A stretch of 20,000 nucleotides of DNA, from NCBI RefSeq assembly GCF_004010195.1, contig NC_057749.1, positions 8,623,645 to 8,643,644 of the forward strand. Reading direction: 5' to 3'. Numbering within the stretch: position 1 is the first letter of the stretch; each line of letters starts with the position of its first letter. The DNA comes from Chiloscyllium plagiosum. Lineage: Eukaryota. Of the stretch, positions 2,018 to 16,284 are shown piece after piece. The notes beneath the pieces were generated by a model that was not told the DNA's origin, ran no database searches, and worked only from the letters and a program-made list of their open reading frames with translations. The translations under genes and the position numbers were made by a program.

Positions 2018-2397
2018 TATAAAATCCCTACAGTGTGGAAAGAGGCCCAACAAGTCCACACCGACCCTCCGAAGAGTAACCCGCCCAGATCCATTTCCTC
2101 TATATTTACCAGGAGAAAGTGAGGACTGCAGATGCTGGAGATCAGAGCTGAAAATGTGTTGCTGGAAAAGCGCAGCAGGTCAGGCAGCATCTAAGGAGCA
2201 GGAGAATCGACGTTTCGGGCATGAGCCCTTCTTTAGGAATGGCTCTTCTTTAGGAATGGCTCATGCCCGAAACGTCGATTCTCCTGCTCCTTGGATACTG
2301 CCTGACCTGCTGCGCTTTTCCAGCAACACATTTTCACCTCTATATTTACCTCTGACTAATGCACCTAACCCACACAACACTGAATACTGTGGGCAAC
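2018..2397 (-). mobile_element. HE1-type SINE 3' half, interrupted by a Penelope-like mini-element
   Basis: AATCCCTACAGTGTGGAA...CCCAACAAGTCCACACCGACCCTCCGAAGAG resumes after 2336 with CTGACTAATGCACCTAAC. Confidence 0.85.
2111..2336. mobile_element. Penelope-like terminal-repeat (pLTR) fold-back mini-element with 14-bp TSD
   Basis: 79-bp inverted arms at 2149-2227 and 2258-2336 (2 mismatches). TSD CCTCTATATTTACC at 2097-2110 and 2337-2350. Same sequence family as the termini of the GIY-YIG element at 3173-4164. Confidence 0.85.
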
Positions 2398-3172: not shown

Positions 3173-4164
3173 TCAAAGAAGGTGAGGACAGCAGATGGTA
3201 GAGATCAGTTGAGAGTGTGGTGCTGGAAAAGCACAGCAGGTCAGGCAGCATGTGTGGTGCTGGAAAAGCACAGCAGGTCAGGCAGCATCTGAGGAGCAGG
3301 AGAATCCATGTTTTGGACGTAAGCCCTTCATCAGGAATTGCGATAGTAGATGAAGGTGAGGGAGAAGGTGATAGGTCGGGGGGACATGAGCGGATCGATG
3401 GGAAAGGTGATGGACAGGTCAGGAGGGCAGTGCTGAGTTGGAGGTTGGGGACTGGGATAATGTGTGGGGAGGAAAATGAGGAAACTGATGAAATCCACTT
3501 AATCCCATGTGGATGCAGGGTCCCAAAGCGGAATATGAGGCGTTCTTTCTCCGGGGATCAGATGGTAAGGGTTTGGCGATGGAGGAGGCCCAGGACCTGC
3601 ATGTCCTTGCTGGAGCGGGAGGGGGACTTGAAGTGTTCAGCCACGGGGCGGTGGGGGTTGGTGGGTGTGGATGTCCCAGTGATGTTCTCTGAAATGATCC
3701 GCAAGAAGGCGTCCTGTCTCCCTGATGCAGAGGAGACCACATCGGGTGCAACAGATGCTGTAGATGACATTGGTAAAGGTACGAGTAAATTTCTGTTGGA
3801 TGTGGAAGGATCCTTTGGGGCCTTGGACGGAGGTGAGGGGAGTGGTGTTGGTGGTGGGGTCTGTTTGGAGGTGGCGGAAGTGGCAAAGGATGATGCGATG
3901 TATGCGGAGGTTGGTGGGGTGGAAGGTGAGGACTGGGGGGGTTCTGTCCTTCTTGGACTCCAACTCAGCACTGTCCTCCTGACCTGTCCATCACCTTTCC
4001 CATCTATCTGCTCCACCCCACCCCGATCTATCACCTTCTCCCTCACCTTCATCTACCTATCGCTTTCTCAGCTACCTTACCCCCAACCCCAAAACCCTCC
4101 TTCAGCCACCTGGCCCACAAGCCTCATTCCTGATGAAGGGCTTATACCCAAAATGTTGATTCAG
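3173..4164 (-). mobile_element. Penelope-like retroelement, 5'-truncated, with inverted partial pLTR
   Basis: pLTR at 3175-3445, GIY-YIG relic at 3490-3963, and an inverted copy (3958-4063 mirrors 3340-3443). Probable TSD ATGTACCCC at 3164-3172 and 4165-4173 inside a CR1 fragment. Confidence 0.88.
3490..3963 (-). pseudogene. Penelope-type GIY-YIG endonuclease domain relic (C-terminus of the PLE ORF)
   Basis: KDRTPPVLTFHP...NVIYSICCTRCGLLCIRETGRLLADHFREH, then after a frameshift PVAEHFKSPSRS..MQVLGLL, a stop codon, and EKERLIFRFGTLHPHGI. This fits the VIY-x-CxxC-YIGET...F-EH...L-P-G motif series, but it is disrupted. Confidence 0.9.
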
Positions 4165-4714: not shown

Positions 4715-4913
4715 TGTGGAGCCGGAATAAGCATAGCAGGTCAGATGGCAACCAAGGAGCAGGAGAGTCAACGTTTCAGGCACAAGCCTTTCATCAGGAG
4801 TCCCTATGAAGAGTCCTGCCTGAAACATTAATTCTCCTGCTCCTCAGATGCTTTTTCCAACACCACACTTTATCAACTCTGACTCTCCAGCATCTGCAGT
4901 CTTCACTATCTAC
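4715..4913. mobile_element. Penelope-like fold-back mini-element (older, diverged arms)
   Basis: AGGAGCAGGAGAGTCAACGTTTCAGGC mirrors GCCTGAAACATTAATTCTCCTGCTCCT. It ends in the family terminus CCAGCATCTGCAGTCTTCACT. Confidence 0.8.
4764..4800 (-). ncRNA. Minimal type I hammerhead ribozyme motif (core intact)
   Basis: Reverse strand: actc-CTGATGA-A-AGGC-TTGT-GCCT-GAAA-CGTT-gact. Confidence 0.6.
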
Positions 4914-6110: not shown

Positions 6111-6291
6111 ATTTTTTAAAAAGTTTAATTTATCCACTCATGGGATGTGACTAAGCTGACATTTATTGCCCATCCCTCATTGCCCAGAGGGAAGTTAAGA
6201 GTTAACCACATTGCTAAGGGTCTGGAGTCACATATGGGCCAGATCAGGTAAGGATGACAGTTTCCTTCCCCTAAAGGACTTTAGTGAACCA

Positions 6292-6504
6292 AAAGAGAAA
6301 ATGCTGGAAAATCTCAGCAGGTCTGGCAGCATCTGTAAGGAGAGAAAAGAGCTGACAAAGCTTTGACAAAGGGTCAGTTAGACTCGAAACGTCAGCTCTT
6401 TTCTCTCCTTACAGATGCTGCCAGACCTGCTGAGATTTTACAGCATTTTCTCTTTTGGCTTCAGATTCCAGCATCCGCAGTAATTTGCTTTTATCCAGTT
6501 TTAT
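6292..6504. mobile_element. Penelope-like fold-back mini-element (third family) with 14-bp TSD
   Basis: 68-bp inverted arms at 6289-6356 and 6391-6458 (1 mismatch). TSD ACTTTAGTGAACCA at 6278-6291 and 6505-6518. Confidence 0.85.
6359..6397 (+). ncRNA. Minimal type I hammerhead ribozyme motif with U3:A8 variant core
   Basis: AGCT-TTGACAA-A-GGGTC-AGTTA-GACTC-GAAA-CGTC-AGCT: 4-bp stem I, 5-bp stem II and palindromic ACGT stem III. Predicted cleavage after GUC (6393). Confidence 0.7.
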
Positions 6505-7405
6505 ACTTTAGTGAACCAGATGGTTTTTCTCCAGCGATTGACAGTGGATTCATGGTCATCATTAGACGCTAAATTCCAGATTTTTATTGAACTCAAATTC
6601 CACCATCTATCACGATGGGACTCAAACTTGGGTCCCCAGGACATTACCTGGGTCCCTAGATTAACAGTCTAGAGATAACACCACTGGACCATCTCTTCCC
6701 AGAGTTTCTGAATTTGGACTTTCAGAAGTCTTTCATCACACCCACCTAAGAGATCAGTGTACACAAAGCAATGTGGCTTCTTGCACTTTCCTATCACAAG
6801 AAGCAGCAGATATTCAATGCCATCCACATTGCTGCAGACCACAGCAGCAACACCCCGACCCCCGGCTTCATTTTCCACCATTGCACGTCCCAGCTTTAAA
6901 CACTAAAGAATGACTTGGTAAATGACGGCAGTTTCATCTGCGTTACAGATGTCCCCTGATGTGTTCTTGCTCAGGAGGTGAGAGAGACCAGCTTACAGCT
7001 GACACTGCAGACTCACCCATGACTCGGCACTCTCACTCTACAATCAGTTCCGATTGGTTGGCACAGTCATATGGCCAGCACACCCAAGTTCCGCTACTCA
7101 GGAAATAGCAATCAAGAACTTCATTTATAATGGGTGCCCTTCAAATTGGATGTCTCATCCTGTGGATGGGAATAGCTAACTATTTCAGCACATCCAGTTT
7201 CTGAATTTGACTCATCAATTTTGCTGTACAGGGGGTCACCGATGCCCAATGTCTTACTAAAGAACATCCGATTTATGAACATAATCCAATACAGGCGTGC
7301 AATTTAAACAATCTAATATTCAAATGTTTCCTGTAGTAATGAGGGGTCACTATATTCTCCTGCATTGTATTCTGACTTGCATTCACATCCATTTACAAAC
7401 GAACT

Positions 7406-10084: not shown

Positions 10085-10207
10085 TCTAGATCAGAGTGGT
10101 GCTGGAAAAGCACAGTAGTTCAGGCAGCACCCGAGGAGCAGGAAAATCGACGTTTCGGGCAAAAGCCCTTCATCAGGAATACAGGCAGAGAGCCTGAAGG
10201 GTGGAGA
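10085..10207 (-). mobile_element. Penelope-like pLTR fragment (first family)
   Basis: GTGGTGCTGGAAAAGCACAGTAGTTCAGGCAGCA...CGACGTTTCGGGCAAAAGCCCTTCATCAGGAAT. A further decayed fold-back copy follows at ~10210-10358. Confidence 0.85.
10145..10180 (-). ncRNA. Minimal type I hammerhead ribozyme motif (canonical core intact)
   Basis: Reverse strand: attc-CTGATGA-A-GGGC-TTTT-GCCC-GAAA-CGTC-gatt. Predicted cleavage between plus-strand positions 10149 and 10148. Confidence 0.75.
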
Positions 10208-12400: not shown

Positions 12401-13067
12401 TCACAAACTCTTCCATAAGACGTAGGTTTAATTTTTTTAACCCTTATTTTAAGTACGATACATTTTTAAGTTTTCAAGCAATCGACCTCGATCAAAGAAT
12501 TAAACATTCGGGCTTTGAGCAAACTTCAGTGTCACTGTCCAAAGCTGACTAACTGCAAGGAATGCCTGAGTGGTGTCAGAAGAATTCCCCTCCATGTCCT
12601 TCCAAGCGTTTCCCTTTCTGTGGCAATTGGTTTCCCCAGTTGAATAGCAATTTCTTACCTTCTGCTTCATTGCAACAAAGGCATGGGTATATAAGATAGT
12701 GGAATTAAATTTTGCTGAGGGAGTCAGTTCCCTTGCCAAACTGCTGAATATTCCTGATTTCTTAACCTGCCACATTCCTTTACATCCCCTTCAGGAAGTC
12801 ACCTTAATAAATTGCATCAGGTTCAATAGAATGACAGTCTGACTGGATTGCAAGTCACCACTGAGTCTTTCATGTGCTGACTTACTAAATCCCAGAGGAT
12901 GACCCTCTTCTGTTTTTGACATGCCTTCTTCCAATTGCCCCCTGTAATTATTTTTAAATGCACGTTTCCATTGCTGTTGCATTCAGGTCTGTTTCTTTGA
13001 TGCTGCTCTTTCTTTGAAGTTATCAATTCAAATTGAAGTGGAGGAGTCAGTGTCAGTAATATGGGGC

Positions 13068-13328
13068 GAACACAGAGAATGCTGTGGAAACTTAGCAGGT
13101 CTGGCAGCTTCCTTGGAGAGAGAAATGGGGTTAACGTTTCACGTCCAGTGTGACTCGTCAGAATTTCAACTCTGAAGAGCAATTAGTCTGAAGAAGACTG
13201 ATGCCAGATTTGAAACGTTAACTCTGTTTCTCTCATTGCACAGATGCTGCCAGACACTGTTGAGATTCTCCAGCATTCTCTGTGTTTGTTTCAGATTTCC
13301 AGCATCTGCAGTGTTTTGCTTTTATTCT
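13068..13328. mobile_element. Penelope-like fold-back mini-element with two opposed hammerhead remnants
   Basis: 13068-13140 mirrors 13212-13290. CTGAAGA...GAAACGTT lies at 13188-13219 (+) and CTGACGA...GAAACGTT at ~13133-13161 (-). Confidence 0.8.
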
Positions 13329-13424
13329 ATAATGTTGCTTAGATGGCCGTGTTCAATTTCTGAAGGACACAAAACTCCTTGTATGCATTATCATTGTTCA
13401 ATCAGAAAATCCAAATTTTACCAT
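13143..13424. repeat. Right arm of the local inverted duplication
   Basis: Reverse complement of 11936-12214, including ~90 bp beyond the element terminus. Confidence 0.92.
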
Positions 13425-15303: not shown

Positions 15304-15504
15304 AGGTAAAAACAATGACTGCAGATGCTGGAAACCAGATTCTGGATTAGTGGTGCTGGAAGAGCACAGCAGTTCAGGCAGCATCCAAGTAGCTTCGAAA
15401 TCGTCGTTTCGGGCAAAAGCCCTTCATCAGGAATAAAGGCAATGAGCCTGGAGCGTGGAGAGATAAGCTAGAGGAGCTTATCTCTCCACGCTTCAGGCTC
15501 ACTG
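15304..15504 (-). mobile_element. Penelope-like pLTR with short terminal fold-back
   Basis: Terminus AGGTAAAAACAATGACTGCAGATGCTGG. Hammerhead at 15399-15434 with GTC changed to GAC. 27-bp hairpin arms at 15443-15469 and 15475-15501. Confidence 0.85.
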
Positions 15505-16284
15505 GATGTAGGATATTTGAGGAATTCTAAAACAGAGGGCTCTCTATCAGATTTGCCCATTTTAGTGGAATGGATACTGCAAGTTTACAAAGATACCTTT
15601 TCAAAATCAACATTATTGTTGGAAGTGGAAATTTAATTAGAATCTATTTTGTAATAACAGGACTCACTACACCAGTGCACTAATATGGATATCTAGCCAG
15701 AAGCAGTATTGCTAATGAGAATAACTCCTGTTTATTACAGTTCATGTTTTGCTTGTCATTTTCAGCAGTGAGCATAATGCAGCTATTACTTTAATGGCTT
15801 TTGTGTTTCTTCTGGCAATGCCCTTTTTTTTTGGTAATTAATTTTCTATTTCCTTTTGCCGTTTAAATGGTGACAGAAGGGAAAAGAGATCAGAGGGCCC
15901 AAACTTGTGAGCCATTACAAGTTGTGAAACAGGTTAACGAGATTATTTTTTAAAAAAATGCAAAACACTGAGGGATAATAGTTAAACATCCCCAGCAGAT
16001 GTCCCCTTCAGAAAGGTTCTGCCTCTCATCAACATCCCATCATTCCTGAACACAAGCTGAGAATAGCTTCCAAAGGAAGCACTTGGGAGCGAGTGGGATT
16101 AATAAAAAAGTTAATAGTTAAATGTTCTTTGTCCAGAGAAATTATTAATGGTGTGAAATAACTGCACAGAGGTTGATATCCCTTCATCAAGTCACCTTTT
16201 ATTTACATGTGCACCATACAGTGGCTGTGGCCAGCCAGCTAGGAATCAGTCCCTGAACTGAGGAGATTATGAATCCTCATTTTA

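Follow-up and report, generated by a model that had tools for sequence, protein, structure and literature searches.

A minimal type I hammerhead motif with a U3-A8 core in an abundant, probably Penelope-like repeat subfamily of Chiloscyllium plagiosum

The insertion and its hammerhead motif

The sequence analysed here, referred to below as the window, is a stretch of 20,000 nucleotides of Chiloscyllium plagiosum (assembly GCF_004010195.1, contig NC_057749.1, positions 8,623,645 to 8,643,644 of the forward strand). Positions 6292-6504 of the window are occupied by a 213-bp insertion, and inside this insertion lies a hammerhead motif. The coordinates of the insertion, the motif and the relatives of the motif are given in Table 1.

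Table 1. Features of the insertion, parts of the hammerhead motif and relatives of the motif in the window (PLE, Penelope-like element; min-HHR, minimal hammerhead)
Feature	Position	Strand	Basis or remark
Left target-site duplication copy, ACTTTAGTGAACCA, 14 bp	6278..6291	.	Perfect direct repeat with 6505-6518; flanks whole insertion
Inverted 5'-truncated twin (hairpin left arm)	6292..6356	-	Reverse complement of 6391-6455/58; without core and without tail
Minimal type I hammerhead motif	6359..6397	+	Sequence, descriptor match, alignment with relatives, published PLE min-HHR layout
Helix I, AGCU/AGCU, 4 bp	6359-62 with 6394-97	+	
Core U3 U4 G5 A6 C7 A8 A9 (TTGACAA)	6363-69	+	
Unpaired A between A9 and G10.1	6370	+	
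Helix II, GGGUC/GACUC, 5 bp including one G-U	6371-75/6381-85	+	
Helix II loop, AGUUA	6376-80	+	
G12 A13 A14	6386-88	+	
A15.1 C15.2 G16.2 U16.1, palindromic ACGU	6389-92	+	
C17	6393	+	Predicted cut after 6393
Right arm, forward-copy body downstream of hammerhead	6391..6458	+	Best-conserved part of repeat family
46-nt tail, forward copy only	6459..6504	+	
Right target-site duplication copy, 14 bp	6505..6518	.	
CTGATGA-core relative	4130	+	
CTGATGA-core relative	4797	-	
CTGATGA-core relative	10176	-	
CTGATGA-core relative	15430	-	
CTGAAGA-core relative	13188	+	
CTGAAGA-core relative	12183	-	
CTGACGA-core relative	13161	-	

The insertion is dominated by a hairpin, the arms of which (6289-6356 and 6391-6458) are 68 nt long, 99% complementary and separated by 34 nt. 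The single difference in 68 positions and the perfect target-site duplication, a direct repeat of 14 nt, had both been cited in the initial annotation and were found again. At the lone mismatch G6307 of the left arm agrees with the family consensus, and the right arm carries A6440 where C accounts for 92-96% of depth in the contig sets described below; the right arm thus acquired its change at 6440 at the time of insertion or later. The insertion breaks into older sequence that resembles another repeat (6130-6291 with 6505-6700), and a 20-nt probe from this interrupted sequence found no second copy in the window. A reverse-strand frame at 6672-6902 gives a sub-threshold match to the transposase model DDE_1 (18.8 bits against a cut-off of 22).

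The letters listed for 6359-6397 in the initial annotation matched exactly on re-reading, and its assignment of the motif to the minimal type I hammerheads is borne out by the layout, a strict descriptor and the alignment with relatives, which agree. Its statement that all helices pair stands for helices I (4 bp) and II (5 bp, one of them G-U) and fails for helix III, which is absent from the monomer. Compared with the core definition in the available text of PMC7151607, the conserved positions U4 G5 A6 N7 A9, G12 A13 A14, A15.1-U16.1 and H17 (not G) are all present. The Watson-Crick pair required between positions 3 and 8 is provided by T6363 and A6368 as a covariant U-A, and G10.1-C11.1 by G6371 with C6385. 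Three helices do not form within one molecule, where only helices I and II are available; because helix III consists of A15.1-U16.1 around a palindromic CG, it can pair only between two copies, and a second copy is needed. For the forward copy alone, ViennaRNA predicted a competing pairing of G5-A6-C7 with G16.2-U16.1-C17.

The strict descriptor set minimum lengths of 3 bp for helix I and 4 bp for helix II, and also demanded a Watson-Crick 3-8 core, G10.1-C11.1, GAAA, a dinucleotide able to pair at 15.2/16.2, U16.1 and H17. With a C3-G8 or a U3-A8 core allowed, its sole match in the 20-kb window is 6359-6397, and 300 dinucleotide-preserving shuffles yielded 0 matches with either core. Rfam gave no hammerhead model match at this position at the gathering score or at E values up to 10. 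It was likewise blank for every canonical-core relative within the window and is therefore uninformative here. A CpG-tolerant 21-mer taken from 6380-6400 found three loci in metagenomes, all of them unrelated chance matches in apparently bacterial sequence, and 0 in viral contigs.

Folding of the whole insertion gave a minimum free energy of -131.9 kcal/mol (z -21), with C17 and 6394-97 paired with the left arm (p=1.00). In this modelled structure the 68-bp hairpin sequesters the predicted cleavage site of the 6292-6504 locus, a point overlooked in the initial annotation. A tandem head-to-tail array of the unit was not found in the window, and the locus consists of one forward unit. Since a partner copy is lacking and the hairpin engages C17 as well as the helix I 3' strand, the motif is predicted to be inert at this locus, and the copy at 6359-6397 is probably an inert stub. 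At 6351-6357 the joint between the inverted arm and the forward copy makes the letters CTGACAA, 12 nt upstream of the real core; this resemblance, with C3 opposite A8, is accidental and lies outside the family sequence, as contig depth is almost nil left of 6357.

The same arms could in principle belong to a foldback or MITE-type DNA transposon or to a microRNA-like hairpin gene, in which the hammerhead-like loop would be incidental. Near-perfect inverted arms of 68 nt with a flanking direct repeat point in that direction, as do long plant microRNA hairpin models that match both strands (MIR6457, for instance, scores 83.5 bits where its gathering score is 140). The right arm is however non-terminal, being separated from the target duplication by the 46-nt tail; junctions vary between copies, and hardly any contig contains the left-arm junction found here; copies that form no hairpin have hammerhead modules homologous to the loop; and every microRNA match is below the gathering score and symmetrical on the two strands. 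Such an origin is very improbable. The MITE, microRNA and chance readings were all rejected.

Relatives in the window and the U3-A8 subfamily

The same module is present in at least ten relatives within the window, most of which have the canonical CUGANGA core. A 19-nt arm motif has 9 matches in the window at up to 3 mismatches, against 0.01 expected, and a tail motif has 6 against 0.04 expected. In each relative listed in Table 1 the core is followed by a helix II hairpin and then by GAAACGTY or a decayed form of it (GAAACGAC at 15430-). In an alignment of 11 window copies (A1) homology runs from helix I to the 3' tail, and the focal motif matches the canonical-core relatives column for column. 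T3/A8 occurs there in the focal copy alone; C3 and G8 occur together in seven of the ten others.

A second alignment (A2) imposed a hammerhead structure on the 11 motifs; pairing cells amounted to 80.6%, against 21-40% with slid partners, and both-sided changes were seen in 6 of 12 pairs, counts that lean towards the structure because it was derived from the focal motif itself. The 3-8 pair reads CG in nine motifs, UA in one (the focal copy) and UG in one, the last being a copy with a 1-nt core deletion that was misaligned by MAFFT. The 15.2-16.2 step across the 11 aligned copies is CG in eight, UG in one and otherwise in two. The first pair of helix II is compensatory between the reverse-strand copies at 4770-4797 (AGGC/GCCT) and 10149-10176 (GGGC/GCCC), and between these two G10.1-C11.1 has become A-U with pairing kept.

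The tail is common to the copies at 13160+, 12200-, 2260- and 3350- and is missing from the partner arms (A1). All three hairpin insertions of the window (2100-2350, 13020-13340 and 6292-6504) have the tail on one arm only, and that at 2100-2350 comes with a target duplication of its own (CTATATTTACC, near 2100 and 2339). One-armed tails fit priming on two strands with two starting points for reverse transcription. A further hairpin, short, near-perfect and separate from these, occupies 15437-15507 (GAGCCTGAAGCGTGGAGAGATAAGCT...) directly upstream of the canonical-core module at about 15397-15436 (-) and has sub-threshold microRNA model matches; one family copy contains an internal tandem duplication of 37 nt at 3220-3292 (GGTGCTGGAAAAGCACAGCAGGTCAGGCAGCAT..).

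Copies of the family are extremely numerous, both in this genome and in those of related organisms. Twenty public runs from ten organisms contain 27-58% of the sampled words of 6250-6560. Positions 6345-6510 were compared with contig sets of three organisms (A, B and F) at a likeness of at least 80%, and 13,082 (A), 29,968 (B) and 14,261 (F) contigs matched; depth at 6363-68 was 17,079, 68,050 and 518,996 in the three contig sets. Within 6357-6392, alternative letters reaching 3% of depth are confined to the CpG sites 6385 (C>T, 10-16%), 6386 (G>A, 13-21%), 6390 (C>T, 0.6-17%) and 6391 (G>A, 19-33%). At 6363 and 6368 no alternative letter reaches 3% of depth in any of the three organisms with data, in a contig table that is depth-weighted, clipped of mismatches near alignment ends and without haplotypes, so that rare C3/A8 or U3/G8 copies and true linkage are invisible in it.

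These figures bear on the possibility that the focal core is a privately decayed CUGACGA hammerhead, which would make this copy a singleton. Its being the sole T3/A8 copy among the 11 aligned in the window suggests as much, but the uniformity of 6363 and 6368 in the contigs of three organisms argues against it, as do a contig insert that also reads AGCTTTGATAAAG and the closeness of the focal copy to the depth-weighted consensus, from which it departs within 6357-6500 only at 6440, the arm mismatch described above, and at 6459 (C here, T in 97-98% of depth). Private decay is thus given hardly any credence. The initial annotation had named a CTGACGA consensus with this copy as a singleton as the case against its proposal, and the contigs of the three organisms contradict that case; its view of U3/A8 as a family-level state is supported by the contrast between uniform letters at 6363/6368 and CpG sites that vary by 0.6-33%. 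Judged from the contig letters, all three organisms share a young, abundant subfamily whose consensus core is UUGACAA.

The contigs are deepest at 6411-6440, with 1.5-2.2 million summed word depth in three runs, and left of 6351 the depth falls to 0, 40 and 162 in the three sets. As it is almost nil there, the hairpin is private to this insertion event and differs from the unit that spreads. The contigs have two classes of 3' end, with loose ends behind 6449-6456 and behind 6494-6495. Many different inverted junctions occur among them, and 12 joints of the type 'opposite strands', to 6391-6463, are among those listed.

Element assignment and the state of the core

The motif most probably is the minimal, dimer-type hammerhead of a retroelement family of PLE type, or of a short non-autonomous unit that PLEs mobilise, and the locus itself a dead-on-arrival stub. 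PLE insertions are described in the available text of PMC8557442 as strongly 5'-truncated, often with an adjacent inverted 5'-truncated copy, and as carrying a tail of 30-40 bp at one insertion end only. The present insertion shows 5' truncation with an inverted truncated copy, a 46-nt tail on the forward copy only and a perfect 14-bp target duplication, that is, three PLE hallmarks. PLE min-HHRs as set out in the accessible part of PMC4209133 are of type I, with a palindromic 15.2-16.2 step in place of helix III, an unpaired nucleotide after A9, G10.1-C11.1, a short helix I (4-5 bp) and an enlarged helix II; dimers are regarded as their working form, and their cleavage in vitro is poor. Their place is the pseudo-LTR of elements that encode RT together with a GIY-YIG endonuclease. 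The motif has the unpaired A6370, G6371-C6385, the palindromic ACGT at 6389-92, no loop 3 and a helix I of 4 bp. Its helix II of 5 bp falls short of the 6-8 bp that many PLE motifs are noted for and is still inside the range of the published alignment (4-5 bp examples, such as Xenopus GGUUC/GAACC; PMC4209133, available text).

Pfam searches of 92 of the 94 stop-to-stop frames of at least 65 aa in the window found no RT or GIY-YIG domain, and returned two sub-threshold matches, HTH_16 and DDE_1. The assignment to PLEs is consequently drawn from architecture and motif type, and the family could comprise either PLE stubs or a retrozyme-related short unit dependent on PLEs.

The insertion may be read as a forward copy (hammerhead, body of about 63 nt, 46-nt tail) placed head-to-head with an inverted, shorter copy without tail, both enclosed by one 14-bp target duplication. 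With UUGACAA as the consensus of this subfamily and CUGANGA retained by its sisters, the change at positions 3 and 8, which pair with each other, would have become fixed in a source element. In transcripts of such an element two modules would pair through the ACGU palindrome to give helix III, the U3-A8 pair would stand in for C3-G8 in the active fold, and the RNA would be cut after C17, probably slowly and probably with the help of the element protein. The head-to-head arrangement is what would be seen if the endonuclease of the element nicked both DNA strands and reverse transcription began on each of them at one of two internal start sites. Dimerisation, cleavage and two-strand priming are all suppositions of this scheme. 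In the wider form of the proposal, a PLE/retrozyme lineage of the vertebrate type fixed U3:A8 as a working core and was then amplified to rank among the most abundant repeats of several related species; this is credible at somewhat less than an even chance. If true, the subfamily would be a natural test, on a large scale, that selection keeps the 3-8 tertiary pair whatever its identity, and the one-tailed inverted twins would be an in vivo footprint of priming on two strands from two start sites, which has been observed to date only in vitro, for an Anolis element.

The same consensus would also result if the core were dead. On that account G8 became A by CpG decay of CUGACGA and C3 became U by a second, neutral transition, the compensation would be only apparent, and the hammerhead would hitch-hike in an element that spreads since its retrotransposition does not need it. 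A relative with CTGACGA (13161-) shows that positions 7-8 can be a CpG, and the CpG sites of the motif are decayed in 0.6-33% of contig depth. Catalytic mutants of the hammerhead of PAc leave its insertion in vitro unaffected (PMC11167929), and the success of the subfamily is therefore no proof of an active core; PLE clades without canonical hammerheads attain very high copy numbers (PMC8557442, available text). Both changes, however, fall on the two partners of one pair and make it Watson-Crick again; by a rough estimate, no more than a few percent of second neutral hits would place the compensating base at the partner position. Further, U4 G5 A6 A9 G12 A13 A14 A15.1 U16.1 H17, G10.1-C11.1 and ACGU are intact in the consensus, and U3-A8 has also arisen independently among flatworm PLEs and among other hammerheads (PMC4209133, PMC3088659, as far as the available text of each goes). 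A dead core is a substantial possibility, though rather doubtful.

Significance and comparison with known systems

The motif is real and probably belongs to the already known class of PLE minimal hammerheads. U3-A8 as a natural covariant of C3-G8, put forward in the initial annotation, is reported from nature in the available text of PMC3088659 and PMC4209133; the novelty implied there for such a core does not hold, as it was printed in 2011 (PMC3088659) and, for PLE minimal hammerheads, in 2014 (PMC4209133). A literature search gave no report from cartilaginous fish among the matches listed, and the supplements of a 2026 preprint may list such families. Current understanding is not changed by the finding, which extends the published U3-A8 PLE minimal-hammerhead class by a host lineage and by a subfamily of very high copy number. 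Screens based on descriptors or on Rfam miss the whole class here, Rfam finding 0 of the window copies. The canonical-core sister subfamilies of the same genome provide a comparison set for selection on PLE hammerhead cleavage.

The closest match in motif type is offered by the PLE min-HHRs of Cervera & de la Pena (2014, PMC4209133), among them the Cercyon PLE of Schistosoma mansoni, which has a U3-A8 core and about 1,300 genome matches with a U3-A8 descriptor. According to the available text, they share with the present motif type I, the palindromic 15.2-16.2 step, the unpaired nucleotide, G10.1-C11.1, a 4-bp helix I, massive dispersed occurrence and pairs on opposite strands, and their alignment lists U3-A8 cores as UUGAUAAA and UUGAAAAA. 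The present case is set apart from them by its host lineage, by a helix II of 5 bp and in that no adjoining PLE ORF was seen; cartilaginous fish are missing from the supplement of that study ('shark' 0, 'Callorhinchus' 0). The same compensatory change of the 3-8 tertiary pair is found in the available text of Perreault et al. (2011, PMC3088659), where C3/G8 covary to U3/A8 in several natural hammerheads, and variants covarying at 3/8 are said there to have been already known as active in vitro; this comparison concerns the pair itself and not the settings of those examples.

Non-LTR retrozymes (Li, Clavereau & Pollet 2026 preprint, doi 10.64898/2026.07.22.740005; PMC7229834) resemble the present family in being short non-coding units with type I hammerheads. 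The accessible part of the preprint relates them to PLE pseudo-LTRs, reports them from one sampled chondrichthyan and includes dispersed monomers. They are defined by tandem units, whereas here one forward unit stands beside an inverted fragment, with no tandem array in the window.

With regard to integration, the one-tailed inverted twins agree with recent in vitro work on PLEs, in which PAc (Poseidon, Anolis carolinensis; Frangieh et al. 2024, PMC11167929) nicked and extended both target strands and began reverse transcription at two internal sites lying on either side of the tail. Nicking and extension of two strands in this manner would give inverted twins like 6292-6504. The PAc hammerhead needs protein to cut; its C3-G8 pair matters, and the C3G/G8C double mutant rescues it partly (PMC11167929). 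Common to the two systems are a hammerhead roughly 60-110 nt upstream of the 3' end of the insertion and two alternative 3' ends with the tail between them, the distances from the cut site being 63-65 and 102-111 nt here against 85-92 nt to the mapped start sites of PAc. Unlike the motif described here, that of PAc has a C3-G8 core and overlaps the start of an ORF, whereas the present one has a U3-A8 core and no ORF.
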